This document shows positions 6,668-54,142 of a DNA stretch of 64,000 nucleotides, piece after piece. The notes under the pieces were generated by a model, which saw only the letters and a program-made list of their open reading frames with translations, was not told where the DNA came from and made no database searches. Location: the IMG/VR virus record IMGVR_UViG_3300028833_000061, positions 128,001 through 192,000 of that record. One strand, 5' to 3'. The translations under genes were made by a program, and so were the position numbers. The stretch is from a virus (lineage: Duplodnaviria > Caudoviricetes). Position 1 is the first letter of the stretch; every line of letters begins with the position of its first letter.

Positions 6668-8333
6668 CGTCGTCATCGTCATCATGCCTTCTTCTGCACC
6701 TCTTTGTCCACTTCGAACTTACAACGTAGTCGTCAATGTCGTCAAACTCATCGTCGCTCTCGTCATAGTTCGATCCTGCCGTCACGGAAACATCTGAATC
6801 ATCCTGCTCGTCTATCTCGTCGTCCTGTCCGTCTATGGCATTTCCATGCTCTATGAAATAGAGTCTTATATGAGCCGGGATAAGCTGCCTAAGCGTGTTG
6901 TAAAAGTTTGGATCAAAAAGTGGTGCCTCCGCTGCTAGTTTATCGGTATCGACAAAAACGAACAGTGTGTTCGCCCCTATCAAATTTTTAAGAAAAAACG
7001 CAATGGGCTGTACACTTCCGCACACAGAACCCTCTGAAATACTATCATTTTTGATGCCATCAAAGCAATCTTCTATCGACACCTTTGACTTTTCGGCCTC
7101 GGACCATACGAAATTCCAGTATTTGAGCTCTTTTTCTGCATTGCCGGTACCGAGATCGAACATAAGTTTCGGATTTCCGTTTGCATCGAAACCTCTGCAA
7201 ACAACATCCTTCTCGTCCCAACCGGCATAAAAACCCGTGTCTAGCGGGCCACGTATGATTGCCTTCGGAATAGAGACCGACGATATATCCTTTTTGAACG
7301 TGTATTCAGAAAATTCTGTCTTTCTTGTCACGTCAGCTACACTTGTTATAAACGGATACAGCCTGACGGCCGTGTCTAGAAAGTCACCGTGAAAGATAGT
7401 GTTTCCAGCCTTGACGCAGTCTCTTAGCACTGCATTCTCTCCGAACGTGTAGACATTCTTGTCTGTTATGACATGCCGCATCCCGTCGCATGTATAGATG
7501 GTCTGTATTGTCTCCGCATCCTCTATCACAGTCGGGACTCCGCACAATGCACCTATCACTATCCTAAGATGCGCCGGGCTCAACCCATCGCTCGTAGCAT
7601 CCCAGACAGCCCGTACCACGTTTCTATACAGCTCGCTCGACTTGCCTTTTAGATCTACAGCATAGCCAGAATGCTTGAATACGAAATCCTTGTCTATAAG
7701 AGTATCGCAGGCCCACAGAACGGTCTCTTGCGTGCTCTCTCCCGTAATCTCGTCAACGACGTCAAACTTAGGAAACAGCGAATCATCGTTAAACGGATCG
7801 TGCTCCTTAGATATGACGATAGACTTTCTATCTATCCTGAAATCAGATCCGTTGTTAAGTATCACAGAAGGTTTGGCTATGCTGTCCACGACGCACGACA
7901 CGACATCCACAACGTCGTCGTCAAGACTGTAGGCAACAACGTCAGAACGATCCACGTGTCTTCCGATGCGTATTTTGCTTTCAAATCCAGCCTGGGTTCC
8001 ATTTGTAAGAACCGCATCGTCGCCTATGCGCATTGTTGCGGCGTCGGCGTTGTTGCGCCTGTTCTTCCTGACAACGATAGGATACCAGCGTTCCCTGTGA
8101 AATACCGGTGTGTCGGTGTGATCGAGCAACTGTATGTTTTCAAGCAGATCCAAATACAGCTGAGCGTATCTTAGCGCCCTCGATCCTTGTAAGCTCTTCA
8201 GAAATTGCTTGTCCTTGTACAGATGTGTCCAGAAGGTTCTCATCCAGCTGAACAGCTGATCTGCCGTTGACGGAACAATGCATCCGTCGATTGCGGGAAG
8301 TCCTAGCTTTGTTGTGGCTGTGTCCTGATTCAT
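6657..8333 (-). CDS. Putative baseplate wedge protein
   Basis: Directly follows baseplate J-like gene; LRQLIPAHI motif near C-terminus typical of gpI/gp7-like wedge proteins; start at ATG 8333 after AAGGAA. Confidence 0.55.
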   Translation of the reverse strand: MNQDTATTKLGLPAIDGCIVPSTADQLFSWMRTFWTHLYKDKQFLKSLQGSRALRYAQLYLDLLENIQLLDHTDTPVFHRERWYPIVVRKNRRNNADAATMRIGDDAVLTNGTQAGFESKIRIGRHVDRSDVVAYSLDDDVVDVVSCVVDSIAKPSVILNNGSDFRIDRKSIVISKEHDPFNDDSLFPKFDVVDEITGESTQETVLWACDTLIDKDFVFKHSGYAVDLKGKSSELYRNVVRAVWDATSDGLSPAHLRIVIGALCGVPTVIEDAETIQTIYTCDGMRHVITDKNVYTFGENAVLRDCVKAGNTIFHGDFLDTAVRLYPFITSVADVTRKTEFSEYTFKKDISSVSIPKAIIRGPLDTGFYAGWDEKDVVCRGFDANGNPKLMFDLGTGNAEKELKYWNFVWSEAEKSKVSIEDCFDGIKNDSISEGSVCGSVQPIAFFLKNLIGANTLFVFVDTDKLAAEAPLFDPNFYNTLRQLIPAHIRLYFIEHGNAIDGQDDEIDEQDDSDVSVTAGSNYDESDDEFDDIDDYVVSSKWTKRCRRRHDDDDDDEY

Positions 8334-27049: not shown

Positions 27050-28015
27050 TTACGACTCCTGCTTCTTGCTGTTGAAGATGGCGAGCGCAACGCCGGCAAC
27101 GTTTCCGATGCCGACACCGCCGAGCCAGTAGGAGAACATCTCGATGAAGTATGCCTCCTTCTTCATGTACATCGTCCAGTCCGTGAGATAGAACGCACGG
27201 CCGAGGAACTTAGGAGCAGCGAAGAAGAACACGTAGCCGTCTGGGATCAGGTCGTCCTTGATAGTGAAGAGGACCTTGACGCCCATGAACTTGTCGATCG
27301 TCAGACCGTCGGTGAAGAAGGTCTGGGAGAGATCGCCACCAACCTCGTCGCGGCCGAAGGTGAGCAGCTCGCCCGCGGTGATCTCGTTCATGAGGCAGAG
27401 ATCGTTGCGGAGGCGGTACTTGCCCTCCTTGTTGCCACGAGGAAGCATGTTGCGAGCTTCCGCGAACGTACGACGGTTGAGGCCGCCCTCGAACTCCATC
27501 TTCTGGATCTTGCCAGTCATATGGTTGCGGCCGTCCTCGTCGCAGTCGTTGACGATCGAGTAGCAGAGCTCGATGAACTTGCGGTCGTACTCCGTGTGGG
27601 CATCCTTGAGCGCATTGTCCGTGAGGATCTTGCGGATGTCCATGCGGGTCGTGCGGAGCTCGTCGATGTCCTTCTGGAACTTCGGCGTGAGCAGACGCGC
27701 GAACGGGATGCGGAAGTTCGTCGACTCGATGTACTCGGCATCGGGCACCGTCTGGAACGGAACGAACTTGGCTCCAGGGGAGTCAGGCTCGAGCTCGATG
27801 GTGATCGAGAGGCCCTCCTGCATGCCACGATCGAGCATGTCGTCGGTAGCCTGCTCCGGAGGAAGGATCTTCATTGCGAAGGAATCCTCGCGGAGGCCCG
27901 TGCGGATGTAGTCGGTCGAAGCCTGAGCGGTCTTCTCGATGTTGTTGGAATTCTCGCGAGTGAGCTCGCCGAGAATCGCGTTGTTCATGACGTCTGTAGG
28001 AACGTTCTGTGTCAT
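27050..28015 (-). CDS. Major capsid protein
   Basis: 321 aa; order protease-scaffold-decoration-MCP-terminator; strongest GC3 codon bias in window; EKTA near N-terminus then LREDSFAMKILPP. Confidence 0.8.
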   Translation of the reverse strand: MTQNVPTDVMNNAILGELTRENSNNIEKTAQASTDYIRTGLREDSFAMKILPPEQATDDMLDRGMQEGLSITIELEPDSPGAKFVPFQTVPDAEYIESTNFRIPFARLLTPKFQKDIDELRTTRMDIRKILTDNALKDAHTEYDRKFIELCYSIVNDCDEDGRNHMTGKIQKMEFEGGLNRRTFAEARNMLPRGNKEGKYRLRNDLCLMNEITAGELLTFGRDEVGGDLSQTFFTDGLTIDKFMGVKVLFTIKDDLIPDGYVFFFAAPKFLGRAFYLTDWTMYMKKEAYFIEMFSYWLGGVGIGNVAGVALAIFNSKKQES

Positions 28016-28984: not shown

Positions 28985-30280
28985 TTACTTTCCGAGGTGA
29001 GCAACAAGCAGCTTGGAAGCGGCGGCGATCTTGCTCATCATAGAGGCTCTCTTGTATATGAGAGATGCCTGCTTGCTGACGGGCTTCTTGGAGATCTTCT
29101 TGGCCGCAACCTTCTTCGCGGAGGCCTTCTTGGCAGATGCCTTCTTTGCAGAAGCCTCCTTCTCACCGTCGTCAGCCTCGGGCTCCGCCTCTGGCTCCTC
29201 TCCGGATGGCTCAGCTGAAGTATCTACAGCGGCCTCGTCGCCGCCCTCGGCTGCCTCGTCTCCGACGCCGACATCCAGGCCTAGCTCCTCCGCCGCCTCG
29301 GGCTCCTCGGCCGCGAGCTCCTCGACGATTTCTGCGAGATCCTCCTCGGTGAGAGCTCCAGACTCAAGCTGTGACATCAGGACCTGTGCAACCGCATCCT
29401 CTGGAAGCATCTCGCCGTCATCGGCTACGTCAGCTTCCGCGGCAACGTCTGCTGGAACGTCCTCGGCCGCTGGCTCCTCTGGAACTGCCTCCGGCTCCTG
29501 GGCTGCCATTGCCGCAATGGCGGCATCTGCTTCGTTAGCGCCTAGATCCTGTGCCTGCTTGATGCGAACATACTGAGCGGCTGCGCGCTGTCCTGCTACA
29601 TATTCCTGAGCTGCACGCTGACCAGCTGCATATTCCTCTGCTGCCTTCTCCTGCCCTGAGATGAAGTTGAAGACATCCTCTGCCTGCTTGGCTCCGGCCT
29701 GCTTGGCCATAACCTTCTCCGCAAGATCTGCTCCCTCCTTTTCTGCGAGCATGGCGCACGCGAGTTTGGCGAGAATATCTGTTGTAAGCTCAAGATTCAG
29801 TTCGGGAGCGCCAGCAGACTTCGTATCCGGCTTGGACTCGACCTTCTTCTCCTTCTTCTGTTCTACCGCGGGAGCGGCGGCCTGCTTCGTCTGAGCGGCC
29901 TGCTTCGTCTGAGCAGTCTGCTGTCCGTGGATCAGAGAAAGGATGTCGTTGACAAGAGTCTTCTGCGCAGACGCCTCCTTGGCATTTGCATCGGCTGTCT
30001 CGAGCGGCTTCTCCTCTGGGTTGACGATTGACTCGTCGGACTCGAACAGGTCGCCGGCCGTGATAGGACGATCGTCGCCCTTGCCTTCTGTTGAACGAGT
30101 TGACTCTGGACCCATCGATCCGTCATTCACCTCGGGATCCTCCTTCGGCAGAGTAACGTCCTTGTCGTTCTCCGCACCGGGCATGTTGTCGGGATCCTCT
30201 CCCGAAATTTCAGCGAGCTTTGCCTGTGCACGCTTCGTCATAGCCTGCACTTCCTTGAGCATCTGAGAGTATGTTGCCAT
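28985..30280 (-). CDS. Prohead scaffold/core protein
   Basis: Low-complexity acidic Ala/Glu-rich, many K-x-A motifs, between protease and MCP; start ATG 30280. Confidence 0.7.
   Translation of the reverse strand: MATYSQMLKEVQAMTKRAQAKLAEISGEDPDNMPGAENDKDVTLPKEDPEVNDGSMGPESTRSTEGKGDDRPITAGDLFESDESIVNPEEKPLETADANAKEASAQKTLVNDILSLIHGQQTAQTKQAAQTKQAAAPAVEQKKEKKVESKPDTKSAGAPELNLELTTDILAKLACAMLAEKEGADLAEKVMAKQAGAKQAEDVFNFISGQEKAAEEYAAGQRAAQEYVAGQRAAAQYVRIKQAQDLGANEADAAIAAMAAQEPEAVPEEPAAEDVPADVAAEADVADDGEMLPEDAVAQVLMSQLESGALTEEDLAEIVEELAAEEPEAAEELGLDVGVGDEAAEGGDEAAVDTSAEPSGEEPEAEPEADDGEKEASAKKASAKKASAKKVAAKKISKKPVSKQASLIYKRASMMSKIAAASKLLVAHLGK
29876..29914. repeat. 18 bp tandem duplication encoding QTKQAA
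   Basis: gcggcctgcttcgtctga repeated twice. Confidence 0.7.
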
Positions 30281-30285
30281 GTTTT

Positions 30286-31836
30286 TTATTCCTTCTGCAT
30301 GTCTTGAAGCGCTCCTAGCGCCGTCATGCATTCTGCTATTTTAGATGTTTTTTGGTTCGAAGTTTCGCCACATCGGCTGGTTATGACTGCGTCTATAGCA
30401 GCTAGTTTGTAAGCAGCGTATTTCTCCGCTAATTTCTTAGTTACATAACCATTTAAAATCTTTAATGAAGAATTGTCAACAACAAAATTAGGTTTAGTTC
30501 CTTTTATTGTCGCGGACACTACAGAATCCTCTAGCGAGTCAATGCAAGACGCTTCCTTCAGCTCCTCTTTCAACTCAAAAAGATTCTGTCTCGAGATCGG
30601 AAAAGAGCATCCAAGTGGCCACGCGTCAAAATTTAGATCGTTGCACAGTTTCTGCAAACAGGACGTATCTTTAGCCTCTTTAAGTACTTCAGCAACTTTC
30701 TGCGAAACACCGTTTAAATAAGGCTTAACTGTGTTGAAGTCATCTCCCATCGCATACTTGAAGAAAGACGTCGAATCCATGACAACGCCAGCATCGCCTA
30801 GAACCCTGAAGGCTGCTCCAGGATCAAGTTCGCGAAGCTTGTCTATTGTTGAATCTTTCAAAGGATGTGATGCTATCTTGCACAGCTGTACAAGAAACTT
30901 GTCGCGCGCCGAATCTGCAGAGGCTGTCTTTGTTATAAATCCAACATACTTGTCGTGCATGTCTATAAGCTGATTGGCATACGCTAGTTTCCTGAGTCCA
31001 GAAGGAGACGTGATCGCCAGCCTGTCTGACGCCTCTACACCATAGTATTCAGCAAGCTTCACGGAATCGAACGGAAGCGTGTACGACGCCTCCTTCTCTT
31101 CTTTGTCGTCGTCTTTGTCCTTCTCTTTATTTTCCTCGTCCTTGTTGTCCTTGTCCTCGTCTTCCTCGTCTGGCATTACTTTCATAAGATCCCACGCGAT
31201 TCTATCTGCTGGCTTACCTACAAACGAGATATCGAAGAACTTAGGTTCGTCGTTGAACGTAAATATATGCCTTCCGTCCTCCATCATTTCTCCAAGATGG
31301 TCACGGACATGCTCGCACTCAAGCTCGTCTCCCGCGTGCTTTCTCTTCGCGCCGCAAATAGAGCAACGATCATGGTCTACCATGCAAGCCATCGAAAAGC
31401 AGATCTCGCCATCGCGCTCTAGACGCTCAAGCTCTGGAGCTGCCTTCTCTCTGTCAGCATGTATGAACAGCTCTACACGATCCATCATATCGTTAAAAGC
31501 AGAAGCAATTATATCGCCTATGGACTTCTTGGGGTCCTTATTCCTGTGATGCCTGAATACGTGTCCGAACTCTACAAAAGTCGGATGATACTTCTTGCAC
31601 GCCTCACGAGTAAAACCGTCACCGTTCCTGTTTGCTCTGTATGCCTCTGTGTCACCAAGTGCTACAACGTGAATACCTACATGATTCTTGTCTGGCTTCA
31701 GTTCATCGTAGCTCTTACCAAAAATAGTCTCTGTCTCTTTCTTTTCAGCTGTCTTTACAGAATTGCCGGAGTCGACAATCTCCATGCCGACTCCTATGTC
31801 AGGATCGAACTGCGATGACTGTATCAGCTTTATCAT
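30286..31836 (-). CDS. Prohead maturation protease
   Basis: 516 aa; NRNGDGF, HVFRHHRNKDP.KSIGDI, FSMAC..DRCSICG..CEH, FFDISFVGKPAD motifs of assemblin-fold phage serine proteases. Confidence 0.8.
   Translation of the reverse strand: MIKLIQSSQFDPDIGVGMEIVDSGNSVKTAEKKETETIFGKSYDELKPDKNHVGIHVVALGDTEAYRANRNGDGFTREACKKYHPTFVEFGHVFRHHRNKDPKKSIGDIIASAFNDMMDRVELFIHADREKAAPELERLERDGEICFSMACMVDHDRCSICGAKRKHAGDELECEHVRDHLGEMMEDGRHIFTFNDEPKFFDISFVGKPADRIAWDLMKVMPDEEDEDKDNKDEENKEKDKDDDKEEKEASYTLPFDSVKLAEYYGVEASDRLAITSPSGLRKLAYANQLIDMHDKYVGFITKTASADSARDKFLVQLCKIASHPLKDSTIDKLRELDPGAAFRVLGDAGVVMDSTSFFKYAMGDDFNTVKPYLNGVSQKVAEVLKEAKDTSCLQKLCNDLNFDAWPLGCSFPISRQNLFELKEELKEASCIDSLEDSVVSATIKGTKPNFVVDNSSLKILNGYVTKKLAEKYAAYKLAAIDAVITSRCGETSNQKTSKIAECMTALGALQDMQKE
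30451..30479 (-). promoter_or_regulatory. Candidate sigma70-like promoter for scaffold-capsid genes, inside protease gene
   Basis: TTGACA-17-TTAAAT in a locally AT-rich patch ~170 nt upstream of scaffold ATG. Confidence 0.45.
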
Positions 31837-34409: not shown

Positions 34410-35660
34410 CTATGCCCGTCCTGTGAGTTTTATTGCTTCGCGCTGCTTCTTCTCTAGGTCTGTCCACGTATTTGCGTCGTACGGACTTATAGCTATGGAA
34501 TTCACAGCCTGTCTAAGTACTGACCTCGTAAGTTCCTTGTCGTTAGCGAGTTCAGGAGATATGTGCAGCAACGTCTGGTAGATCGACGCAACCGTGTCTG
34601 GATCGGCTTCCGCTATTATCTTGTCTCTTGCCATAAGATCCTGCAGCATCATAGCACGCACAACATTCTCTGTCGTTCGCTTTGTCTCGTCGTTCTCACT
34701 AGCCTGGTTGTCGAAAAGAGCAGAATCCAGATCGAAAGCGTCTGAATGTACTAATCCTTGCGTACCAGTCGTAAGACCCTTGCCAAACGCGAGGCGTCCG
34801 ACCATCGAGGCCTTCTTCTCGTTAAACAGTGATAAAAAAGTACTTGGGCCCTCCTCTTTCTCCCCTATAAACGCAGTCGTTATCTCTGAGTTCATTTTCT
34901 CGGCCTGCTTGTGCATGCTGTCTGCCTGGGCGCGCATGTCTTTCATCGAAGACAGAGTCTCGGCCATATCCTCTGCTGTCTTTATCTCGTCGGAAAGATC
35001 AGAATCGTCAACAAGAGATGCCTTGCACTTTGCTTCCTTGAACTGAGCGGGTAAAACCTTGTCAAGCTCCTTGACGATATCCTTGTTTGCAGACTCCTTG
35101 AAGCGGGCATACTTCTCTACGCCGCCTTTCTTAACAGTCTCAGCAAGCCCATAAAGCTGTGTAACAAGATCGCTCTTCATCATGCCTGCAATGTTAGCTG
35201 CAAAATCTGCGGCATTCTTTACAAGCTTCATCTGATTGACTAGGAGATAAGCCAGATTATCTCGTGACAACCCTGTGGTCTTCTCCTCGTTCTCTGCAGC
35301 CTTCTCGACTACATCATCCTCATGTGCAATGTAATCATAGGCGGGCTTACTGTAGTCGAAGTAAATGTGATTGACCTCTGCGGTCTTCTCCTCCTTGCCA
35401 AGAACCTTGTCTGCGTCTAGCATCATCGCTGCAACCTTGTCCTTGTGTGCAAGAGGAAAAGAAGCGGTTTTGTCGGCAGCTTGCTTGTACTGGTTAATTG
35501 TAATAGCAGTATTTAACGTCTCAACAAGACGATCTGTCTGATCGCTGTTGAACTCATGAGCTGCTGCAGACTTGCAAACAGCCTCGTCAGGCGTGCTTCC
35601 CTCGTTGCAGAACTTTACCGCGTCCTCTAGCGCTGATCTTAATTTGTCTTCAAATGCCAT
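34410..35660 (-). CDS. Putative head core protein
   Basis: 416 aa helical with ~10 K-x-A motifs (DKTAS, EKTAE, EKKAS...). Confidence 0.55.
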   Translation of the reverse strand: MAFEDKLRSALEDAVKFCNEGSTPDEAVCKSAAAHEFNSDQTDRLVETLNTAITINQYKQAADKTASFPLAHKDKVAAMMLDADKVLGKEEKTAEVNHIYFDYSKPAYDYIAHEDDVVEKAAENEEKTTGLSRDNLAYLLVNQMKLVKNAADFAANIAGMMKSDLVTQLYGLAETVKKGGVEKYARFKESANKDIVKELDKVLPAQFKEAKCKASLVDDSDLSDEIKTAEDMAETLSSMKDMRAQADSMHKQAEKMNSEITTAFIGEKEEGPSTFLSLFNEKKASMVGRLAFGKGLTTGTQGLVHSDAFDLDSALFDNQASENDETKRTTENVVRAMMLQDLMARDKIIAEADPDTVASIYQTLLHISPELANDKELTRSVLRQAVNSIAISPYDANTWTDLEKKQREAIKLTGRA

Positions 35661-39405: not shown

Positions 39406-41277
39406 CTAATACGTGTAACCACCTTTTCTTCTTACCCCAGGGTCAAAATAATTTCCAAATTCAACACCCTTGGCCAATCCAGGTATAGGATTGGTACTAT
39501 GTATGTCTGACGTAGATCCATGCTGTGCGTCGTCTATCAGTCTCTGTTTCAAATACGTAGTTCCAAGCCTGGACACCCAATCTCTATCGGTACCGGTTGA
39601 TTTTACTATCGACTGCATGATTGGCATAACATCTATAGGACGATCGTTGGCCACGATGTCGTCTCCTACTCCAAACTTATCCAGGTCTTTAGCGACCCGA
39701 CGCGTTATCTTTGTGCCTATAGTGTAATGCAGCGCAGGCTGCTCAAGATACTTGCCTACAAGAGACGATGCCTTGCCACGCACAGAATCAGGTCTCGGCG
39801 AATATCCACGAGACCATGTAGTATACGTAGTGACATCTCCTGGCAGAAGCTTCCCCTCAGAATCCTCGTTCTCTATCTCGACGTGATTTACAAGTGCTCT
39901 TGCGATAGATTCAACGTTACGCCTATGCGCCGAATATCCAGAGTCGCGAATGGCCTGTGTGAATCTTTCTGCGAAATACCTGCGTCCTTCGCCTATACCC
40001 TTGTACTTCACGACGTCCTTAGGATCTAGCACTCCATCGGAAATCTGATCTCCTGCCTCAAGCTCATCTCCATTCTTAACAAGAAGAGAATATCCAGGCG
40101 CAACATAATGCTGTTCGCCGCCTATTACAACGTACTCTCCGCCCTGCGGTGCCTTCTCTATGGAATCTACAGTTCCATCCTTTTTCGCAACTACAGCTCT
40201 ATCAGGATAATTTTCAGGCACTGTTGTGAGTGCCTTTATCATATTAAAGCCCTGGTATTTGCCGGCGCCGCTAGTAAGGCGACCTGAATGCTTTGTTGAC
40301 AGACCAGCCTGTGCAATTCTCTCACTTATGGCGGAAGCCGCAGTAACACCGAGATTATAGCCAATCTCAGGAAACTTTCCGTTCTCTCGTATTCCTGCAC
40401 AGTGTGCGCAAATTCCGCTGCTTGCCTGACACGTGACAGGTGACCTCACGGCTATGTCTTTTACACCGTCCTTTACAAAATCCTGTATGGTTGCCTTCGT
40501 GATAACTTCGCCTGCCTTATGGCCACCGGCATCATATGCAAGTACCGATCCTATGTTGTCTTTGTCGGTAGCAGACACCGGCATGCCATACTTTGATCCG
40601 CAATCATCCTCTGTCACAACCTGATCTATGGCAAGAGAAGCCAACAGCTTTCCAAGTTCTCCTCCCTTTCGTGTCGCCTGTTTACCTGCGACAACACCGT
40701 TTCTGGCACCGTAAGAGCCAGCCCATAACTCAGCAGGAGAAAGCCCGTCAGCGTATGAATGCCTAATAAACATAGGTATCGGCTTGCCCTTGGTGTCGGT
40801 ATACACACCAGGAGAAGCAAGTAACGCTCCTAACTGAGCCTTGTTTCCTCTCGCCTTGGATTTTACCTGCATCGCGAAAGGGTTGTCATTCTTCAGTGCA
40901 GAATCATATGCACTGTCAAACATAAGACCAGTCATATCTGTATATAACTTGTCCAGAAGAGACCTCTTCTCGTCTTTTGATAACGACTTATCAGCAAGAA
41001 TCCTATTCTCCTGCTCGTCCATCATCTTGTAGACGGCAGACCTGTCAAACGGCGGAAGAGTATCTGACAGCCTAAGCGTTACTCCGCTTTCTACGGCTCC
41101 TCTGTTTCCAAGCTTAAGAAGCTTGTACGATATATCTTTGTATTTGTCCGGTTGCTCGTTTGCTATTTTCGACAGCAACTCGCTGATCCCGTCGGCACCC
41201 ATGACCCTTGTATAGTCACGGTACTCCGGCGGGATCGCATCATTTACGAATATCTGACCTACTGTCGTGCTTAGCAT
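39406..41277 (-). CDS. rpoC: DNA-directed RNA polymerase beta-prime, C-terminal half
   Basis: TTVGQ, SKARGNKAQL, bridge helix GARNGVVAGKQATRKGGELGKLL, EDDCG/RSPVTC/ICAHC Zn site, trigger loop SERIAQAGLSTKHSG. Confidence 0.93.
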   Translation of the reverse strand: MLSTTVGQIFVNDAIPPEYRDYTRVMGADGISELLSKIANEQPDKYKDISYKLLKLGNRGAVESGVTLRLSDTLPPFDRSAVYKMMDEQENRILADKSLSKDEKRSLLDKLYTDMTGLMFDSAYDSALKNDNPFAMQVKSKARGNKAQLGALLASPGVYTDTKGKPIPMFIRHSYADGLSPAELWAGSYGARNGVVAGKQATRKGGELGKLLASLAIDQVVTEDDCGSKYGMPVSATDKDNIGSVLAYDAGGHKAGEVITKATIQDFVKDGVKDIAVRSPVTCQASSGICAHCAGIRENGKFPEIGYNLGVTAASAISERIAQAGLSTKHSGRLTSGAGKYQGFNMIKALTTVPENYPDRAVVAKKDGTVDSIEKAPQGGEYVVIGGEQHYVAPGYSLLVKNGDELEAGDQISDGVLDPKDVVKYKGIGEGRRYFAERFTQAIRDSGYSAHRRNVESIARALVNHVEIENEDSEGKLLPGDVTTYTTWSRGYSPRPDSVRGKASSLVGKYLEQPALHYTIGTKITRRVAKDLDKFGVGDDIVANDRPIDVMPIMQSIVKSTGTDRDWVSRLGTTYLKQRLIDDAQHGSTSDIHSTNPIPGLAKGVEFGNYFDPGVRRKGGYTY

Positions 41278-43122: not shown

Positions 43123-43560
43123 CTAAGCGACCATACGCCATCCAGGAAGACCATACTTGTCCGTCGCATCCTTTAGCACGTTCGCAACGAGATACAACTT
43201 CCACCTCTTCCACTGCCACCATCTGAATTTCTTTCTTGCTATAAGCCTTGTATTGTCCTTGAGCTGTTTATTCACAAGATGAAACTCATCCAACGTGCCA
43301 CCCTTGTAATACTTCAAATCGTGTATTGCAACAGCCTCCAGATCGTCTCGCAACAGACTAGACAATATATACCTTATATACGCAGGAAACCTGTCCGGTC
43401 CGACGCCGTTATACTGCTCTCTAAGAACTTCCTCAGGATAAGAATCAAAGATGTCCGCCCCACTCAGTCCGAGTGCTTTTGCAGATTTCACAAGATCCAT
43501 TATGTCTGGAAGCGGGCGGAGAGACTCCGCCTCTACGGTCGTTAGCTCAGAATTACTCAT
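43123..43560 (-). CDS. DUF1353-like protein
   Basis: NGVGP...AVAIHDLKY motif, basic Trp-rich C-terminus. Confidence 0.55.
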   Translation of the reverse strand: MSNSELTTVEAESLRPLPDIMDLVKSAKALGLSGADIFDSYPEEVLREQYNGVGPDRFPAYIRYILSSLLRDDLEAVAIHDLKYYKGGTLDEFHLVNKQLKDNTRLIARKKFRWWQWKRWKLYLVANVLKDATDKYGLPGWRMVA

Positions 43561-43665: not shown

Positions 43666-44856
43666 CTACGGTCTAGTCGATTCCTCGCCAAGCCCTATAA
43701 GAAGGCGAAGCTCCTCAGGTGTTAGCTTTCTTTTCTTGTTGCGAGAGCCTGTATCAACACCGTCTATCCCGCGAAGGAGCAAATAACCCTGTGGAGATAT
43801 CGAGCCCAGTGGAGCTGCGTTACCAGACGCAGACGTCTGCGGCTTACCCGCTGTCTCCTGAAGCTTCTTATACTGCTCGATTACCTGTCTTGCTTTCTCT
43901 TCTTCACGCAGTCTCTGAAGATCCGCCTCATCCTGTTCCTTAGCAAGCTGCTCCGCCTTTGCTTTCGATGCGAACGACTTGTCTGCCTCAGAGCCGGCCC
44001 TGAGCTTCTGAGACTGCTCCTGTGCGGCAAGTATTTGTCTGAGCAGCGGCGACATTGTTATGCCTGCTATTTCATCAGATCCGTTACCTGCCGTAGAGCC
44101 CCACAAAGGAACGTCAACTGTCTCTTTTACAATGCGACTTGGTTTAAAACCATCAGGAAATAGCTCACGCTGCTTAGCATTGGCTGCCTCTATAAGCTCG
44201 TTGTCATGCTTTATTTTGTTCGCCTTTTGAAGCCACTCCGCATACAGTTTCTTGTTCATCGCCGCTTCTCGTTTGGCGAGATTCCGATTCAGCTCAATTG
44301 CTCGATTATTAGCTTCTCTTACATCTTGGCCCATCAAATATCTCGTTGGATGAAGCAATCCACCATATGTATTTTGTCTTACCTCTTCCTCCGACATCAC
44401 AGGTGCTCTCTTAAGCTTTATAGGCTTAAAAGGCGGTGGATAGCTAATCAGTTCCTGATCTTTGACTTTTTCGCCTCTGACAGGATATGAAATGTTTACA
44501 GAAGCATTATTAAAACCGTTAGTTATGGAGGCTAAACCACCTGGAAGTGTAACAAATCTATCTGTAGCAAGCGGACCGGCAGCATCTGGAGGAAGTATGT
44601 GGTTGATCATTGCTGGATCAGACAGTCTGAATGTCACTGGCTCGGTAGACGACAGATCGTAAAAGCCGCTCTTAAGCTTGTCCTCCTCTTCGCCAGGAGC
44701 GAGACGTACTCCTCCTCCAAGAGGACCTGTTGGCCTGTCAAGACTGCTAGGAGATGTGTCCTCAGGTTTAAGCGGAAGGCCACCGGGCAGTACAACCATG
44801 TCGGCTGCCAACTTCCTCATCGCAGACACGAAGCCATTCTTGAAATTATTCGTCAT
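43666..44856 (-). CDS. Putative internal virion protein with MTNNFKxGF leader
   Basis: Begins MTNNFKNGFVSAMRKLAA; AGGAG RBS. Confidence 0.6.
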   Translation of the reverse strand: MTNNFKNGFVSAMRKLAADMVVLPGGLPLKPEDTSPSSLDRPTGPLGGGVRLAPGEEEDKLKSGFYDLSSTEPVTFRLSDPAMINHILPPDAAGPLATDRFVTLPGGLASITNGFNNASVNISYPVRGEKVKDQELISYPPPFKPIKLKRAPVMSEEEVRQNTYGGLLHPTRYLMGQDVREANNRAIELNRNLAKREAAMNKKLYAEWLQKANKIKHDNELIEAANAKQRELFPDGFKPSRIVKETVDVPLWGSTAGNGSDEIAGITMSPLLRQILAAQEQSQKLRAGSEADKSFASKAKAEQLAKEQDEADLQRLREEEKARQVIEQYKKLQETAGKPQTSASGNAAPLGSISPQGYLLLRGIDGVDTGSRNKKRKLTPEELRLLIGLGEESTRP

Positions 44857-44954: not shown

Positions 44955-46193
44955 CTACCATTCTTTGTCTATATTCTTCTCGAGCCACCCGCCACGCTGA
45001 TGCCTGTTACCGTGCACCTTGTGCACTATATTCGTTCCGTTTATGTGATAGCCATTATAACCGAGATGGTCTCCCTCTGCAGGAATTACTCGAATACCAA
45101 TCCTCGTGTTGTTCGATATCACGATCTTCTTGCCGTTCTTAAGCCTAAGTACGATCTCGTCGTGGCCATCTGTCTTATCTGGAGTAAACGACTCGACCTC
45201 TCCTTCGCCAGACTCGTAGGTCTCACTCTTAGAGGATGCCTTCTTCTCAACGACCTTGTCGATGTTTCCTGAGCTGAAGCCCATGGACCCATACTTCTTG
45301 TTATCGAATTCAACGACGAACGACTTCCAGCCGTGCTTGTTTTCAGGGTCTATGCGCACGATCGTGCCTATATGGCCCTTCTGTTGGCATCTGATGTTGT
45401 CTGAAACCTTTACACGATCCCCGACTGAGAACGACTTCTCCTTTTCCTTCAGCTCATCCTCGGTAGGAAACTTTGAGTTCGGAAACAGCTTCTTTAGGTC
45501 GAGCGAAGAGGCCTTCTTCTCTGCCACGTTGTATACGAGCTTCCTGTAGCCTTTCGCGTTCTTCGGAGTGGCGTCCTCGAACCCTGCTGACAGGGCGGCC
45601 CGTATCGACGGTTCGTTGTCTGCGAACGCCTCCCACAATAGCCTTTTGACATTCTCCTTCCTGGCTTTCCTGACGGCCGCCTCCACCATGATCTTGGCTA
45701 GACCGTTTCCACGGGCCTCCGAAGAAACGGCAATTATATTGTGAGGAGGAAGTTTCCTGCCTCTCTTGTCCTTGCGCGAGTAAAACTCCTGGAACCCTAC
45801 GGGATCGCCTTTTCCGTCAACTACGACCTGCCTGTCGAACAGTATGTCGTCTGGTACCTTGCGAAGGAAGTCAGGATGTCTTGGAACAAGGTTTGCCCTG
45901 TCGTCGAAGTCAAGCTTGTCGAACACCTTGAGTGTGTCCTCGTACGTTGGATCCTTCTTGAGGCTATACGATTCGGCCTTCTTGCTCCAATCCTCGTACG
46001 GATCAGCTCCGTGTTCCAGCTCCCATTTTATCTGAGCTTCCCTAGCATTCCTTACTGCAGGATTGCCGTTGTTGCTTATGCCAGACGCACCGTCCGTTAC
46101 GATGAAGAAGTTCAGGCCTTGCTTCTTTGCAAGCCTGTTCACGGCGTCAACCAGCTTACGTGCCTTAATCAGCTTTTTCTCTTCCGGTGTCAT
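44955..46193 (-). CDS. Multidomain protein containing GNAT acetyltransferase and KOW/SH3-like domain
   Basis: GNAT motif A IAVSSEARGNGLAKIM and NEPSIRAALSAGF; FSVGDRVKV..GTIVRID..VVEFD; domains bounded by KKA motifs. Confidence 0.75.
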   Translation of the reverse strand: MTPEEKKLIKARKLVDAVNRLAKKQGLNFFIVTDGASGISNNGNPAVRNAREAQIKWELEHGADPYEDWSKKAESYSLKKDPTYEDTLKVFDKLDFDDRANLVPRHPDFLRKVPDDILFDRQVVVDGKGDPVGFQEFYSRKDKRGRKLPPHNIIAVSSEARGNGLAKIMVEAAVRKARKENVKRLLWEAFADNEPSIRAALSAGFEDATPKNAKGYRKLVYNVAEKKASSLDLKKLFPNSKFPTEDELKEKEKSFSVGDRVKVSDNIRCQQKGHIGTIVRIDPENKHGWKSFVVEFDNKKYGSMGFSSGNIDKVVEKKASSKSETYESGEGEVESFTPDKTDGHDEIVLRLKNGKKIVISNNTRIGIRVIPAEGDHLGYNGYHINGTNIVHKVHGNRHQRGGWLEKNIDKEW

Positions 46194-46498
46194 TAAAATC
46201 TAAACTGAAAGCCGGTAACAGGTGCTCCGCTTCCATGTCTTATGTTAAGCGCGTTCACCAAAGGTTTGAAAACCCACTGATTCCTCTGCAGCCAGTTAGG
46301 CTTTTTATAGTGCTCAAGTCCGGGAAGATCTGTTTCTTTCGGCGAATCAGACAAAGAAGCAGCAGAAGACACTGCCTGTAGTCCAGCTGTAGCTGGTGCG
46401 TGTCCTCCCATCCATACAGACGCGAAAGGCAGTGACAAATCTGGCTTCTGCTCTTCTGCCAGCTTGTCCATGAATCCGCGTTTAAAATTTTCCGTCAT
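46193..46498 (-). CDS. Small protein with MTENFKRGF leader
   Basis: Begins MTENFKRGFMDKLAEE; TAATG-coupled to the GNAT gene. Confidence 0.6.
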   Translation of the reverse strand: MTENFKRGFMDKLAEEQKPDLSLPFASVWMGGHAPATAGLQAVSSAASLSDSPKETDLPGLEHYKKPNWLQRNQWVFKPLVNALNIRHGSGAPVTGFQFRF

Positions 46499-46561
46499 TT
46501 TTAAAACCTTTATGCTACTATATCACATAAAGAGCAATTTTAACACACAAAGGGCCTGCAG

Positions 46562-47449
46562 ATGACAAACAACTTCAAACGCGGTTTTACAGACGCTATC
46601 AGCACAATGCAGAAACAGGCCGCACTATCGTGGCGCCCATGGAGGTGGGGCAAAAACAACGCAGAAACGGGAAACAAGTACAACTGGGGAGATTTATGGA
46701 CTGGGCTTGGGGCCGCCGGTGCCCAGACGATGAAAGCAATGTCTCGTGCCGGACACGATCTTGCTAGAGGCGCAAGTTCTCTTCTAGGGCAAAGTGACTG
46801 GGTTGATAAAATAAACAAATCCGAAAAATATACAGATAATTTCTGGAACGAACATACTCCTGGCGGACAGGACTCTGTAAACACATTTGAATACGACCCG
46901 GGTGCGAGACAGGCACTAAGAGCAACTGAATTGATAGGTGCTACTCTTCCTGGTGCGGTCGCAGGGCCATATGGTTTGCTTGCCACGACTGCTGCAACAA
47001 AGGCGGGAACAAGACCGGACACTGGAGTGAAGAGCATTTCTTGGGATGAAAACGGAAGACCTGTTCCTGAGCTAGTTAATGCGGATCCGGCGTACAAGGC
47101 CTGGGATAATGCAACCGGCTTCATGCCATATACGTGGGTTGGAAACCTCACAGGGGAGGTTAACAACGAGATGGCAGACTCAAACTCAGACAAATACTCG
47201 GCTGGCAATGTCGTTGGAGCCGGAGCAACCGGGCTTACCATGGGTGCCATCGATAGAGCGCTTCGATACGCTGGAAGAAAATGGCCAGCCTTAACCGCTG
47301 CCGGAGCAACTCTTGCAGGAGCAGGTACTGGAGCCTGGAGAGCAAAGCCATTCTTGCGCGAATGGAATGAAAATCTAGACACCCTACGTGGAGACGCAGA
47401 AACAGCGCGCCCCGACGTACTTCTGCACAGAACAAACCCTCAAAGGTAA
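46562..47449 (+). CDS. Putative internal virion protein with MTNNFKRGF leader and Gly/Ala-rich segments (only plus-strand gene)
   Basis: Begins MTNNFKRGFTDAISTMQKQAA, homologous to leaders of minus-strand neighbours; fills a gap lacking a plausible minus-strand gene. Confidence 0.7.
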   Translation: MTNNFKRGFTDAISTMQKQAALSWRPWRWGKNNAETGNKYNWGDLWTGLGAAGAQTMKAMSRAGHDLARGASSLLGQSDWVDKINKSEKYTDNFWNEHTPGGQDSVNTFEYDPGARQALRATELIGATLPGAVAGPYGLLATTAATKAGTRPDTGVKSISWDENGRPVPELVNADPAYKAWDNATGFMPYTWVGNLTGEVNNEMADSNSDKYSAGNVVGAGATGLTMGAIDRALRYAGRKWPALTAAGATLAGAGTGAWRAKPFLREWNENLDTLRGDAETARPDVLLHRTNPQR

Positions 47450-47497: not shown

Positions 47498-47947
47498 CTA
47501 AGTTTGCGTGGTTGTTTGAACCTTTTTTATCTTTTCAACGTATGGATCCGTAGATTTCTTTAGCCAGCCCTGAGGACCACCGTTGTGTATTCGAATAAGC
47601 ACTTCGATGGTTGCGGGTTTTCCTGTGCGACGAGTATATGCCGAACCGTACCGAGTAAGATACGCTCTTGCAACCTCATAGGACTTAGCCCTGTCCTTCA
47701 TGTCGTTCAGGGTATATGAAAGGCGGGAGTCGGTCAAGTAGGGCTGCTGGATCTGAAGGCAACCGACAGATAGCTTTCCGTTGGTGTCGGTGACGACCAC
47801 GTCGGTCCTGCCGTTGCTTTCAACAATAGCAACTGCATCGAGAAACGACGTCCAGTCGGCGTCGGTAGTCGGAATAGTCGAAAGGTCGATTCCGAAGGAG
47901 TTGATGACCATGCAGAACGCCACGACCATGGCTGCGAGTTTTTTCAT
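47498..47947 (-). CDS. Lysozyme, invertebrate-type/destabilase-like, with signal peptide
   Basis: AIVESNG (catalytic Glu), GCLQI..Y..D, YLTRY, RIHNGGP signature; MKKLAAMVVAFCMVINSFG signal peptide. Confidence 0.8.
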   Translation of the reverse strand: MKKLAAMVVAFCMVINSFGIDLSTIPTTDADWTSFLDAVAIVESNGRTDVVVTDTNGKLSVGCLQIQQPYLTDSRLSYTLNDMKDRAKSYEVARAYLTRYGSAYTRRTGKPATIEVLIRIHNGGPQGWLKKSTDPYVEKIKKVQTTTQT

Positions 47948-49711: not shown

Positions 49712-52700
49712 CTACATGTCTAAAATTTGAACTGGATCGTTCATTCCTATGAGACCTTGTCTGTAGGCCTCCTTGGCATCTTTCGCTGTTCTGAATACCT
49801 TGGGCCTCTTCCTCGTCGCAGGCCTTGTAAGATTGTACAGTCCCATCACCTGCTCGTTCTCAGGCTTGTATCTTGGAGACGACAAATCTGTAAGCGAAAT
49901 TAGATTCTTGGATGGAAGCATCTTCTCGTATGCTTCCCTGACAGCCTTGTCAGACGACGGCACGTGAATGTTAACCTGGTCTCCGTCGAAATCTCCAGCC
50001 ATTGGCGATGCGCTGAACGGGCTTATTCGTATCGACTTTCCGTCAACAAGCGACGGTTTGTATGCCATGATGTTGAACTTGTGCCATGTCGGAGCCCTGT
50101 CCATCAAAACAGGCCTGTTTGCCATCTCCTCCTGAAGCGCATTAAGCGCTGTGTCGTCCCTGCCTCTTATCATATTTACAGCCTGAACGGGACTGTACCC
50201 GCGTCTAACCAACCGACGCTGTACATATGGCTTATACATCTCCCACGCAATATCCTTCGGTATGCCGATCTGGTCCATATCCAGGTTTTCATCTGGAGTT
50301 ATGACCGCTCGTCCTACATTGTCGAGGTTCTTGGCTATGATCTTGGCCTGGAACATAGAAAATTTCGGAGAACCTGTTCCTATAACCTGCCTTATGGCTC
50401 CTTTGATGTTCTTGGACTGTCCCTCTGGCGTTATTGGGTCTCCAAGTCCAAACACAGCGGCTACAGACTTGTACAGGTTCAGCCTCTCGTCCGCTAGAGA
50501 TTCGTCTGCAACAGATCCCTTCAGCGCAGAATAATTCTCGGCGTTCTCTATGACGTCCTTGTATAGATCGTTAAGATCCGATACTAGTTGCGTATCGCCA
50601 AGTTTAGACACGGGCCTGAACTTCGGAGGTATGACAGGAACCTTTGTTATCATCCAATCCTTGGGCTCAAGGCCCTGCTCCTGCATCGATTTAAGATATC
50701 CAAGTACCTTTACCGCGTTGTCTCTTCCGGCGCCTCTCTTGTTCTGGATGTCATTTCTGGCTGCCGATATTGCCTTGTCGACGTCAATGGCCTCAAGCGC
50801 TGACTTTATCGCCTCTCCGCCAGTCTTTCCATTCAACTTCTCTGTGCCTGACAAAATCTTCTCAAGCTGATCTACTGTAAGACCAAGTACACGCCTTACA
50901 GGCTCCTCCATTATAGGATTCGGTATAGGCTCTGGAAGCTTTATAGCTGACCACCTGAGACCGTCTGGACCGCCTGTCTTCCCGAGGTCAAACAAACCGC
51001 CGTCTACAGGCTTCAGATCTGAATTCATCATCTTGGAATTCTTTATAATTCTATTGCCTGCCATCTCGTCGATATCTTTGTCCGTAAGAGGAAGTATAGA
51101 CGTCTTGCTTCCCTTCTCTACGACATTTATTCCTCCGGCCTTCAGCGTCTCCAGGAATTTGTTGTATATGAAAGGAACACCAGGTTCAGGTACTGGAAGC
51201 CCTAATCTAAGTTTGTTCCAGTACTCCTCGTTCTTCGTGCCGCGGATCGTCATCATATCCTTTAGATTCTCTGTCGCGCCGTGTGACAAAAGAGCCGTCC
51301 TGTCGAGACCCGAGACCCTTTTGGCTCCTGAAAATCCGCCTCTTGCCGGTGCTTCGTCCTGAGTATATGCAGCATCGTTTCCTCTGGCAGACAGCTTTTT
51401 CTCTGCGAGATGGTGGAACGCCTGAATGTATACGTAGCCATCACCGATGTTGTGCAGCGTCTTTCCGGTACTTGGGTCAAATATGTCCGAAGAATCCTTG
51501 ACTCCGGCAGCATCAAGCTGTGCCTTCGCCCAAGTCGCCCATCCCTCCTCAGGAGGAAGCTGTGGGATGCGTACCTGCTTTCCGGTCTTCTTGGCAACCT
51601 TGCCAAGAGCTATCTCGATAAGCTGATTCGGGGCAACTCGTGACAGGAATCCCATAGGATTCATTAGAATCTCGTAAGGCTCGTTCGTAACCGCGTCACG
51701 AGGCATCTCGTCGTCTGGACGGACTTCTCCTATTGTACCCTTGAGAGCGTCATGAGGAGACAGCTTGTCTGCTACCTGCTTTGGCGGCGTAGTCACGACA
51801 TTTACCTTGGCGCCGCTTGGCGTCATTACAGCATCGACAACAGTGCCAGGCCAGTCGTGCTCCCACACCTCTGATCTATCTGTAAACGAATTACGCAGCG
51901 TCTTTGACAGCTTGCCGAGCATTGCATCTTTCGCAGACAGAAGCTTCGGCCCGATAGATACGATTATAGGATCGCCTTTGTGAAGTACGGTTCCAGGCTT
52001 GGCTATTCCATTGTCGTCTATGTTTTCAAGCTGCTGCTTCGTAAAAGCCTGCGGGAATGCCGCCATGTACTTCTTCTTGTCTATAAGCACGCCGTTCTTC
52101 TTGTCCGTGTCAAATCCGAACAGCTGTTCGGTAGCCAGCTTCTTGGCCGCAGTCTCGGATATGACTATCGCGTCCTCGAAGTTGCCTGACTTGCCTGACG
52201 GCATAATTGCTACCTTCAGGTTGACGCCCGTATTGAACGATCCTGTTTTCTTGTCCGTGAAGTTGGAGTGGGCTATCAAATCGCCCTTTCTAACGCTCTG
52301 CCCGACCTCAACGGCAGGAAACGTCGAGAACGACGACATTCTATTATGTGGATAGTACTTTACAAGATCGTACGTCCTCTTCTTGCCATCTGCACCCTTT
52401 ACGACGACACTGTCGTCGTTCACAGCAGTCACGACTCCGTCTTCATTGGCTGTGACGGAGCCTATTCTCTTTCCATAATGCTCAAGAAAAGTCTCTTTTC
52501 CATCAGGCATCAAAGACGCGACTAGAGGAACCTCTCCCTTTGCCATCGGAAGATACTGCTCCCAGAACTTTGTAGCATAGAACTGTCTTGCGCCCTGGAC
52601 GCCTGTCGGCATTGGATTGAAGTTGGTTGTCGTAGTAGACATGGACGAGAAATCGGGCACCATGTACGAAACCTCGTTCCTTGCCACCTTGGTAGGAACG

Positions 52701-54142
52701 TTATCCTTCATTGCATACAGGAATTTCGAATTGGGATCCTGTCCAGGAAATGCAACACCACCATCGACAGCCTTTGCCAGGCTTACAAACTCCTTCTTGC
52801 CCGTCTTCAGATTTATAAACTTCGAGTACAGCTGGCCGTCTTTTCCTTTATATGTATTGGAGGCGGCTCTGACATCCACACCCGCATTCATCGACTCAGG
52901 GCCAGCAACAGGATCAACAAATCCAAGATAATCTCCCTGCACATCCCTTGCTTCTGCAGTAACGGCATCTGGAGATCCGATTCCGCCTTGGCCCATCTTG
53001 GTTATGCGGTTCATCTGAACATAGTTCGATATCGGATTTGCCTCTTCGCCAGGAAGCGCAAGACCCGTTCCGCTCAAGAAATGCTCGATGTACGGATTCA
53101 GCGCGCCTCTCGGAATCCTTCCAAGATTACGATCGCGCTTAGCCTTCCACAACAGCTGCTGCGTAAGCTTTCCAGAGTCCTTGTCGACACGTTCCTTAAG
53201 AAAGTCCTCTATCGAATAGACGCTAGAATACCTAGGAGAGTCTCTTCTGTCAGGCTGTTCGTCGCCCCTGGATATGTTTATTACCTTCTGCGAGGCGCGT
53301 AGGAGAAGCTCTGGCGTGATTCCCTTGGTATCTACAAGACCCATAGTGCGCTGGACGACATCCTCGTCCATTCCACACTGTGCAAGGGAATCCTTAACGT
53401 ATCTCGCCATCTCAAACTCATTGGCAAGAGCATCCGCCTTCTTGCCTGCAAGTCTGCGATATAGCCTCTTCATAGCCTGAGAGTCGTGCTTCTTTGCGTT
53501 CTCAAGCGTTACGTCGTTGCCCCAGTACTTTGCGATTGTCTTGTCGTCTACGCCTATGCCCTTAAGCACTGGATACAACGGTATGTGACCCTGGCCAACC
53601 TGCATGCTGAACACGCCTGTCTCTGGATTCATCTCTATTCTGAATCCAGGGCCTGTTCCAGGTTTTACATTGAATTGGGCCTCGTACTCTCCAGACGTCT
53701 TTCGTCTTGCGTACACGCCAGGACGAAGTCTCGACTGATTGACTACAGTGTACTCATTTCCATTAGAAATTATCGTACCTCTGTCCGTGTAATACGGCAC
53801 GTTCATTATAACGTCATCACGCTCGTCTATGACCTTGTTGCTCTTCTTGTCGATAAGTTTCCACGTTCCAGACATCCTCGTCTGGAGCTTACGGTTCTTC
53901 AGAAGAGCGTCCTTCTGCTGTGCTATGGTGAAGCTCTGAGGACTGGTATACCTTACGTTGTCCAGCTCGATCCTGTAGTCGTCGTTCTCAACAGGAAACC
54001 GTTTCTTTACAGAATCCAGAAGTCCATCATATATGAACTGACGTGTCTTTTTTGTGTCATCGAACTGGCGCAGGTCGTCAGGAACGTCGGACACCGTGCC
54101 CGCCGCCTGCTTTTGTGCCAGTGGTATGCTGTCGAGAAGCAT
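49712..54142 (-). CDS. rpoB: DNA-directed RNA polymerase beta subunit fused to N-terminal half of beta-prime
   Basis: beta motifs PYYTDRGTIISNG, NFEDAIVISE, DKLS..KG, MNPMGFLSR, HLAEKKLSAR; then beta-prime GGLFD, PVIPPKFRP, SDLNDLY, DRAPTWH and catalytic AGDFDGDQ (49979-49993). Confidence 0.95.
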   Translation of the reverse strand: MLLDSIPLAQKQAAGTVSDVPDDLRQFDDTKKTRQFIYDGLLDSVKKRFPVENDDYRIELDNVRYTSPQSFTIAQQKDALLKNRKLQTRMSGTWKLIDKKSNKVIDERDDVIMNVPYYTDRGTIISNGNEYTVVNQSRLRPGVYARRKTSGEYEAQFNVKPGTGPGFRIEMNPETGVFSMQVGQGHIPLYPVLKGIGVDDKTIAKYWGNDVTLENAKKHDSQAMKRLYRRLAGKKADALANEFEMARYVKDSLAQCGMDEDVVQRTMGLVDTKGITPELLLRASQKVINISRGDEQPDRRDSPRYSSVYSIEDFLKERVDKDSGKLTQQLLWKAKRDRNLGRIPRGALNPYIEHFLSGTGLALPGEEANPISNYVQMNRITKMGQGGIGSPDAVTAEARDVQGDYLGFVDPVAGPESMNAGVDVRAASNTYKGKDGQLYSKFINLKTGKKEFVSLAKAVDGGVAFPGQDPNSKFLYAMKDNVPTKVARNEVSYMVPDFSSMSTTTTNFNPMPTGVQGARQFYATKFWEQYLPMAKGEVPLVASLMPDGKETFLEHYGKRIGSVTANEDGVVTAVNDDSVVVKGADGKKRTYDLVKYYPHNRMSSFSTFPAVEVGQSVRKGDLIAHSNFTDKKTGSFNTGVNLKVAIMPSGKSGNFEDAIVISETAAKKLATEQLFGFDTDKKNGVLIDKKKYMAAFPQAFTKQQLENIDDNGIAKPGTVLHKGDPIIVSIGPKLLSAKDAMLGKLSKTLRNSFTDRSEVWEHDWPGTVVDAVMTPSGAKVNVVTTPPKQVADKLSPHDALKGTIGEVRPDDEMPRDAVTNEPYEILMNPMGFLSRVAPNQLIEIALGKVAKKTGKQVRIPQLPPEEGWATWAKAQLDAAGVKDSSDIFDPSTGKTLHNIGDGYVYIQAFHHLAEKKLSARGNDAAYTQDEAPARGGFSGAKRVSGLDRTALLSHGATENLKDMMTIRGTKNEEYWNKLRLGLPVPEPGVPFIYNKFLETLKAGGINVVEKGSKTSILPLTDKDIDEMAGNRIIKNSKMMNSDLKPVDGGLFDLGKTGGPDGLRWSAIKLPEPIPNPIMEEPVRRVLGLTVDQLEKILSGTEKLNGKTGGEAIKSALEAIDVDKAISAARNDIQNKRGAGRDNAVKVLGYLKSMQEQGLEPKDWMITKVPVIPPKFRPVSKLGDTQLVSDLNDLYKDVIENAENYSALKGSVADESLADERLNLYKSVAAVFGLGDPITPEGQSKNIKGAIRQVIGTGSPKFSMFQAKIIAKNLDNVGRAVITPDENLDMDQIGIPKDIAWEMYKPYVQRRLVRRGYSPVQAVNMIRGRDDTALNALQEEMANRPVLMDRAPTWHKFNIMAYKPSLVDGKSIRISPFSASPMAGDFDGDQVNIHVPSSDKAVREAYEKMLPSKNLISLTDLSSPRYKPENEQVMGLYNLTRPATRKRPKVFRTAKDAKEAYRQGLIGMNDPVQILDM

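Follow-up and report, generated by a model that had tools for sequence, protein, structure and literature searches.

A 412-residue phage protein built of four exchangeable modules joined by K-K-A, a putative precursor of capsid cargo

The window analyzed here is a stretch of 64,000 nucleotides (bases 128001-192000) from the 201,401-bp record of an uncultured phage (IMGVR_UViG_3300028833_000061); positions are those of the window unless they are called genome positions. Nearly all genes of the region lie on the minus strand, and the surrounding genes are those of a large phage that encodes a multisubunit RNA polymerase for itself. Our subject is the open reading frame (ORF) at 44955-46193 on the minus strand, which is open over 412 amino acids (stop codon at 44955-44957) and is composed of four modules (M1 to M4) that meet at three K-K-A tripeptides (joints 1 to 3); we refer to its product as the polyprotein.

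44955..46193, minus strand: whole modular ORF, 412 amino acids (ORF call and Pfam)
45984..46193, minus strand: M1, residues 1-70, orphan alpha-beta-beta-alpha domain (homologues and AlphaFold model)
45975..45983, minus strand: joint 1, KKA at residues 71-73, DNA AAGAAGGCC
45519..45974, minus strand: M2, residues 74-225, GNAT acetyltransferase (Pfam, PHROG, motif RGNGLA)
45510..45518, minus strand: joint 2, KKA at residues 226-228, DNA AAGAAGGCC
45246..45509, minus strand: M3, residues 229-316, a short helical lead-in and then a four-strand beta unit, possibly SH3-like
45237..45245, minus strand: joint 3, KKA at residues 317-319, DNA AAGAAGGCA
44958..45236, minus strand: M4, residues 320-412, DUF3465-like beta domain (Pfam)

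M2 matches the Pfam family PF00583 (GNAT) at residues 123-207, with 41.6 bits against a cut-off of 20.7, and PHROG acetyltransferase families as well; its acetyl-CoA binding motif A (R/Q-x-x-G-x-G/A) reads RGNGLA at residues 161-166 and is kept in homologues. An earlier, sequence-only reading of this gene had named a GNAT acetyltransferase module, and the match above the curated threshold, together with the acetyl-CoA motif, bears this out. NCBIfam equivalogs gave M2 no named substrate class (best matches 15-26 bits, against cut-offs of 86-180). M4, listed as unknown in the earlier reading, is instead DUF3465-like: PF11948 matches residues 319-407 with 24.9 bits, just under the Pfam cut-off of 25, and precomputed PF11948 matches are found in homologues P0003, P0011, P0092, and P0096. 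M3 matches SH3_13 weakly (residues 239-296, E value 0.047, 13.9 bits against a Pfam cut-off of 41), and AlphaFold places four strands at residues 268-307, at a predicted local distance difference test score (pLDDT) of only 40-60. The model of the whole chain is weak (mean pLDDT 55) and for that reason was not used for fold searches. Modeled alone, M1 gives a confident alpha-beta-beta-alpha structure (pLDDT 93.6), for which Foldseek against the PDB, VIA-align wide (best Z 4.8), and BFVD returned no credible match; its invariant residues are A22, F30, G35-A36-S37, N41, A46, A50-R51, W57-E58, and D64-P65. M1 is widespread, being a free-standing protein of 64-92 amino acids in many phages: gp25 of Fusobacterium phage JD-Fnp1 is such a protein and ends just at the end of M1. 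Besides the window, M1 is recorded at L001:3950-4210. All four modules occur also as free-standing genes, with P0099, P0103, and P0107 as free-standing copies of M3.

The three joints stand in the contexts EDWS-KKA-ESY, NVAE-KKA-SSL, and KVVE-KKA-SSK. Within-protein shuffles predict 0.39 K-K-A where three are present [P(≥3) = 0.006], and two copies of EKKAS, as found here, arose in 0 of 20,000 shuffles. All three K-K-A fall between Pfam domains and lie within low-confidence or coil stretches of the weak AlphaFold model (residues 63-78, 225-249, and 303-323), in agreement with the sequence-only reading, which had placed the motif at domain boundaries. That reading also took KKA(S) as the separator of the four modules: the modules, the K-K-A at their boundaries, and the flanking contexts stand as described, but KKAS has to be replaced as the unit by K-x-A, which at the joints takes the form K-[KNEQR]-A. 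At the DNA level, the joints provide the two longest direct repeats of the gene; of the 7 joints read, 5 use GCC for Ala (a codon with a 26% share among Ala codons), and most retain the word AAGAAGGCC.

Homologues shuffle their modules at the same motif, which had been put forward as a check on the polyprotein idea and proved clearly positive. A large protein collection was searched three times, for proteins of near, longer, and shorter length, which yielded 122 relatives, numbered here with a P. When 123 proteins were cut blindly at every K-[KNEQRLT]-A and the pieces were clustered, clean clusters emerged for M1 (31 members), M4 (26), GNAT (22), and M3 (13); the same proteins display 83 distinct architectures, and 13 different partners are found downstream of M1. 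In BLAST comparisons, blocks of homology terminate exactly at the module ends of the query, and the order of modules varies: M1-M2-M4 in P0002, M1-M3-M4 in P0003, M4-x-M2 in P0007, and M2-M3 in P0006. P0002 is the query without M3 and P0003 the query without M2, each removed exactly between joints, with 90-98% identity per module. One and the same upstream end is joined to varied downstream modules, YEDWS-KKA to -ESYSL, -SSLDL, -QAITP, -SCKKK, and -GYNPR, and SDQLN-KKA to -ESYSL, -QAYDS, -EKAMP, and -SSKRE; the joint position itself also reads KNA, KEA, KQA, or KRA in homologues. K-[KNEQR]-A coincides with 37 of the 99 homology breakpoints, where 5% is expected (sevenfold over chance), and with 35 of 79 after a stricter cut, although these breakpoint counts, like the enrichment counts given below, come from related sequences and their p-values overstate independence. 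Partner modules include HD, NUDIX, Ham1, helicase, AAA, APS kinase, transglutaminase-like, and Peptidase_M91 domains and a module with an HExxH motif. P0034, P0102, and P0104 have at the N terminus the opening ∼28 residues of the HExxH module (..DFDxIVQAYRDRYGVDLSHM), which (R/C)EKKA joins to other modules, as if a deletion at a joint had produced these proteins.

The joint motif is lineage specific, while M1 stays common to both of the clades compared. A distant, low-GC clade that has M1 in common with the KKA clade carries joints reading PTNES, SINES, LAINES, or PIKES; its 68 breakpoints include 23 at [ITVLY]-[NK]-E but not one at K-x-A, although this pattern was picked after the data had been viewed and its p-value is inflated. 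In the KKA clade, [ITVLY]-[NK]-E is at chance level (2 of 99 breakpoints). Hydrophobic-x-Glu is the known T4-type site (PMC9026906).

K-x-A is found also on the proteins of the head, which are encoded 13 kb from the polyprotein gene.

30286..31836, minus strand: head-maturation protease candidate (PHROG match, His97/Ser148, gene position)
28985..30331, minus strand: acidic scaffold-like protein, 448 amino acids, 14 K-[KQLTNER]-A including KKASAKKASAKK
27050..28015, minus strand: major capsid protein, HK97-fold, 321 amino acids, K-T-A at residues 28-30

Counted against within-protein shuffles, K-[KQLTNER]-A is enriched in the scaffold-like protein (14 versus 3.5 expected), in the protease (9 versus 1.7), and in the product of the ORF at 34410-35660 (8 versus 2.3); the head region as a whole (26396-57150) has 69 versus 30.5 expected, and the remainder of the genome 144 versus 97.8. 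We base the protease assignment on a PHROG match (E value 7.6e-6), on the label "capsid maturation protease" given in one distant Gordonia phage, on the invariant His and Ser, and on gene position. Its family comprises 2,735 representative clusters; in the best 150 family representatives, at <50% mutual identity, K-x-A occurs 1958 times versus 590 expected (3.3-fold), with a motif logo of [LFM]-x-K-x-A-[SAE]. His97 and Ser148 are invariant in an alignment of 50 sequences, and the catalytic domain is flanked by K-x-A at residues 28-30 and 248-250, sites that are kept in 48 and 49 of the 50, respectively. The self-processing sites of T4 gp21 and SPN3US gp245 bracket the catalytic domain similarly (PMC9026906, PMC10052503). 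The catalytic domain of the family also has invariant Cys158, Cys161, and Cys174 and a near-invariant His176, which look, from the sequence, like a zinc-binding insert, unusual for a head protease.

A cultured phage, Salmonella phage Arash, carries the same marks. TKQA (residues 29-32) of its protease homologue, gp222, aligns with VKTA here; its capsid protein, gp226, is 26% identical to the capsid protein here (E value 4e-33) and has K-E-A at residues 27-29, where our phage has K-T-A at 28-30 in an otherwise unconserved N terminus; and K-x-A is likewise abundant in the neighboring virion proteins gp220, gp223, and gp225. Elsewhere in our record, a 588-amino-acid protein (genome 1695-3461, minus strand) starts with MTQNVP, as the capsid protein does, and both have K-T-A at about residues 21-30. 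The strongest K-[KQLTNER]-A excess in the genome (10 versus 1.2 expected) belongs to a 348-amino-acid protein encoded ∼19 kb before the start of the window (genome 107906-108952, minus strand), in which 12 K-x-A are spaced 20-40 residues apart; this could make it either another scaffold-like protein or a precursor of peptides.

The polyprotein gene itself sits between two RNA polymerase genes, among genes whose products begin with short leaders that end in K-x-A.

46193..46498, minus strand: upstream 101-amino-acid gene, leader MTENFKRGFMDKLA
43666..44856, minus strand: 396-amino-acid neighbor, leader MTNNFKNGFVSAMRKLA
46562..47449, plus strand: 295-amino-acid gene, leader of the MTNNFKRGF type ending MQKQA
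49712..54142, minus strand: RNA polymerase beta/beta-prime fusion, start MLLDSIPLAQKQA (PHROG RNA polymerase beta families)
39406-41277: second RNA polymerase gene (PHROG RNA polymerase beta families)

A TAATG overlap joins the polyprotein gene to the upstream 101-amino-acid gene, so that the coupling to a small leader-bearing gene named in the sequence-only reading is real in the sequence. We also considered a frameshift fusion of the two products and rejected it, because the overlap (...TTT TAA TG) has only four T and offers no favorable slip into the polyprotein frame. More leaders ending in K-x-A are ...GFKKQA (41959), ...SSAEKKA (33545), ...IMRKTA (56776), and that of the RNA polymerase. 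In homologues, leaders are fused directly to modules: a leader of the MTENFKRGFMDKLA type in P0008, P0067, and P0096, MEQSLRKKA followed by GNAT in P0093, the same leader followed by M4 in P0123, and a leader followed by M3 in P0105. We rejected the idea that the K-R-G-F leaders resemble those of type IV prepilins, since what follows them lacks both a hydrophobic stretch and a Glu at +5.

Several further observations concern these neighbors and their leaders. The gene at 46562-47449 is the only clear plus-strand gene in the stretch, and GC skew flips locally; a 280-amino-acid minus-strand ORF that overlaps it (46540-47382) is probably spurious. Among the leader-bearing genes lies one for a 149-amino-acid lysozyme/SLT-like protein (47498-47947, minus strand), with weak Pfam matches and a signal-peptide-like N terminus. 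A second leader family, MKT(D/R)A..(L/I)IKTA or ..MQKQA, is found at genome 1294-1698, 7010-8179, and 102333-103724, all on the minus strand; the product of 7010-8179, 389 amino acids, contains HExxH (AHEYSH) and has one module in common with P0025, P0064, P0065, and P0068. We found no related loci in IMG/VR, and a scan of JGI metagenomes gave only three short ones. On a 196-kb NCBI metagenome contig (L003:8612-11200), P0009 (HExxH module, GNAT, M4) comes after a leader-bearing 319-amino-acid gene (MTPYEQGFLSKCAEHG...) and after a homologue of window 43123-43560, so that the local gene set is conserved but rearranged.

Because K-x-A also occurs where capsid, scaffold, and protease should be cut, we favor the reading that the polyprotein is probably a bead-on-a-string precursor of capsid cargo, cut apart by the head protease at K-x-A. 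Support for the link between the joint motif and the head protease is indirect. Under this model, four independently folding modules would be linked by K-K-A, a form of the recognition motif of the lineage's head protease (in general K-x-A, often [LFM]-x-K-x-A-[SAE]). The chain would be made late, in translational coupling to the small leader-bearing protein, and would be taken up into the prohead. There, besides trimming the capsid protein, degrading the scaffold, and processing itself, the protease would also cut the chain at its three joints. The freed modules would remain in the head and then enter the host with the DNA, after which the GNAT module may acetylate a host or defense target. 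Cleavage, packaging, and injection are what we infer from the motif and its distribution, as are the scissile bond and the nature of the acetylation target. With every module ending in the same short motif, in-frame recombination at any joint would give a working precursor, and the lineage could therefore swap modules freely.

Herpesvirus assemblins, which have a fold in common with phage head proteases, cut between Ala and Ser in x-x-Ala-Ser; by analogy, a cut between A and S of K-K-A-S-S would fit assemblin-type cleavage. A wider claim can be framed, to which we give slightly less than an even chance: K-x-A may be the cleavage code of a large, uncharacterized family of head proteases, distinct from the Glu-specific code of T4 and phiKZ, such that flanking K-x-A would be enough to turn a module into capsid cargo, whether it has a leader or not.

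Several points weigh against the cargo-precursor reading, among them the statistical limits given above for the breakpoint and enrichment counts and for the [ITVLY]-[NK]-E pattern. The assignment of 30286-31836 as the head protease is of moderate strength, and this protein has no match in Pfam, NCBIfam, or the PDB, by sequence or by profile. K-x-A is found within its catalytic domain as well, and some occurrences therefore cannot be cut sites. The polyprotein starts with MTPEEKKLIKARK, which is the start of M1 itself, and has no K-x-A in its first 70 residues; its closest relatives likewise begin with M1 and without a leader, which leaves the route to the prohead unexplained. Either M1 or the coupled upstream leader protein takes the polyprotein to the prohead, or the polyprotein is not packaged.

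If it is not cut at all, it would be an ordinary multidomain ("polyvalent") protein in which K-K-A is a favored linker or helix cap and the domains act together. We regard this as unlikely, although there are documented cases of polyvalent proteins delivered intact (N4 virion RNA polymerase and ArdC; PMC5512222), the polyprotein has no leader, and the weakness of the AlphaFold model leaves room for contacts between domains. Were the linker passive, it would not change from K-x-A to [ITV]-[NK]-E between lineages around the same flanking module, nor would it also end leaders, flank the catalytic domain of the protease (48-49 of 50 sequences), and mark the N terminus of the capsid protein; that each module exists free-standing too also speaks against this reading. 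Cutting at the joints by another enzyme, the zinc metallopeptidase (HExxH) module of polyvalent proteins, acting in cis or in trans, seems improbable to us. Iyer et al. proposed such peptidases for the autoprocessing of polyvalent proteins (PMC5512222), a HELAHEVW module ending ...SDQLN-KKA opens P0004, P0005, P0009, P0013, P0021, P0030, P0032, P0061, and P0070, and the genome under study has its own leader-bearing protein with AHEYSH (the 389-amino-acid product of genome 7010-8179). However, the 412-amino-acid polyprotein lacks an HExxH module, this genome contains no homologue of the HELAHEVW module, and the explanation does not account for K-x-A at the catalytic flanks of a serine protease and on the capsid protein, that of Arash included.

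The DNA of the joints bears on a further alternative, namely, that the joint is mainly a crossover site whose conserved AAGAAGGCC provides microhomology for in-frame recombination, with no role in the protein. The retention of this word at most joints read does argue that the joint is also a crossover site, as do the two longest direct repeats of the gene, the excess of GCC Ala codons, and the excision of M3 and M2 exactly between joints in P0002 and P0003. The chance that this is the joint's main role appears slim, as the joint varies as KNA, KEA, KQA, and KRA yet retains K and A, and the motif is conserved where no shuffling happens, at the capsid N terminus and the protease flanks. Moreover, a crossover role is compatible with cleavage, since a protease site may double as a crossover point.

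Several known systems resemble the cargo precursor proposed here. In T4, gp21 cuts at L/I-x-E, cargo carries capsid-targeting sequences, and the scaffold is cut into pieces (PMC9026906). The short N-terminal leaders of T4 IPI-III and Alt end in the head-protease motif, as those described above end in K-x-A (PMC9026906), and the enzymes packed in the T4 head and ejected from it, the scaffold cut into pieces, and the self-processing protease are taken as parallels for what we propose here on sequence grounds. T4 cargo, in contrast, consists of single proteins that lose a leader, whereas here there are several modules per chain and a site at each joint; the T4 motif is L/I-x-E, cut after Glu, whereas here it is K-x-A (K-[KNEQR]-A at the joints); and the protease here has no detectable sequence match to T4 gp21, nor the polyprotein a T4-type leader. 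SPN3US gp245 cuts at A-x-E, releasing propeptides of 20 and 24 residues, with Ser preferred at P1' (PMC10052503). The phages of phiKZ gp175 and SPN3US gp245 are, like ours, large, with a multisubunit RNA polymerase (packaged there), many head proteins with propeptides, and a three-residue motif after which Ser is favored (PMC10052503, PMC5694885), but their motif is (S/A/G)-x-E or A-x-E, cut after Glu, and multi-module cargo chains are not described there.

The polyprotein belongs to the class of polyvalent proteins described by Iyer, Burroughs, Anand, de Souza, and Aravind in 2017 (PMC5512222), which combine unrelated effector-type domains (GNAT, HD, NUDIX, helicase, peptidases) in highly variable architectures: it has four modules where at least two unrelated domains define the class, and its set of 123 proteins has 83 architectures. 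Polyvalent proteins are predicted to be delivered with the DNA (PMC5512222). They differ in that no conserved short junction motif was described and autoprocessing by a metallopeptidase was proposed (PMC5512222), whereas here a lineage-specific tripeptide marks the joints and is found also on capsid, scaffold, and protease. In how it would work, the proposed system resembles the capsid-targeted internal proteins and Alt of T4 and the ejection proteins of giant phages, from which it differs by several modules per chain with a site at each joint, by the K-x-A motif, and by a protease unrelated in sequence; our literature search found no published K-x-A code and no head-protease-cut polyproteins of this kind. 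Polymorphic toxins also have a short conserved motif at the point of module exchange, such as VENN in CdiA and PxxxxDPxGL in Rhs proteins. There, however, a single C-terminal toxin tip is exchanged on secreted bacterial proteins, whereas here the motif stands at every boundary of a protein from the head-gene region of a phage.

If the joints are cut, one gene would deliver a changeable set of small enzymes and binders that could be predicted from a three-residue code, and new cargo would be gained by in-frame recombination at the protease site. K-x-A would then stand as a second head-protease specificity beside the Glu type, and candidate ejected proteins (early-acting, anti-defense, or host-takeover) could be listed from sequence alone for uncultured jumbo phages. 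Under the wider claim on the protease family, M1 would be a new, widespread cargo domain, and the proteome packaged and injected by thousands of uncultured phages would become readable from sequence alone. Salmonella phage Arash, a cultured phage with the same protease family and K-x-A marks, makes the idea testable.
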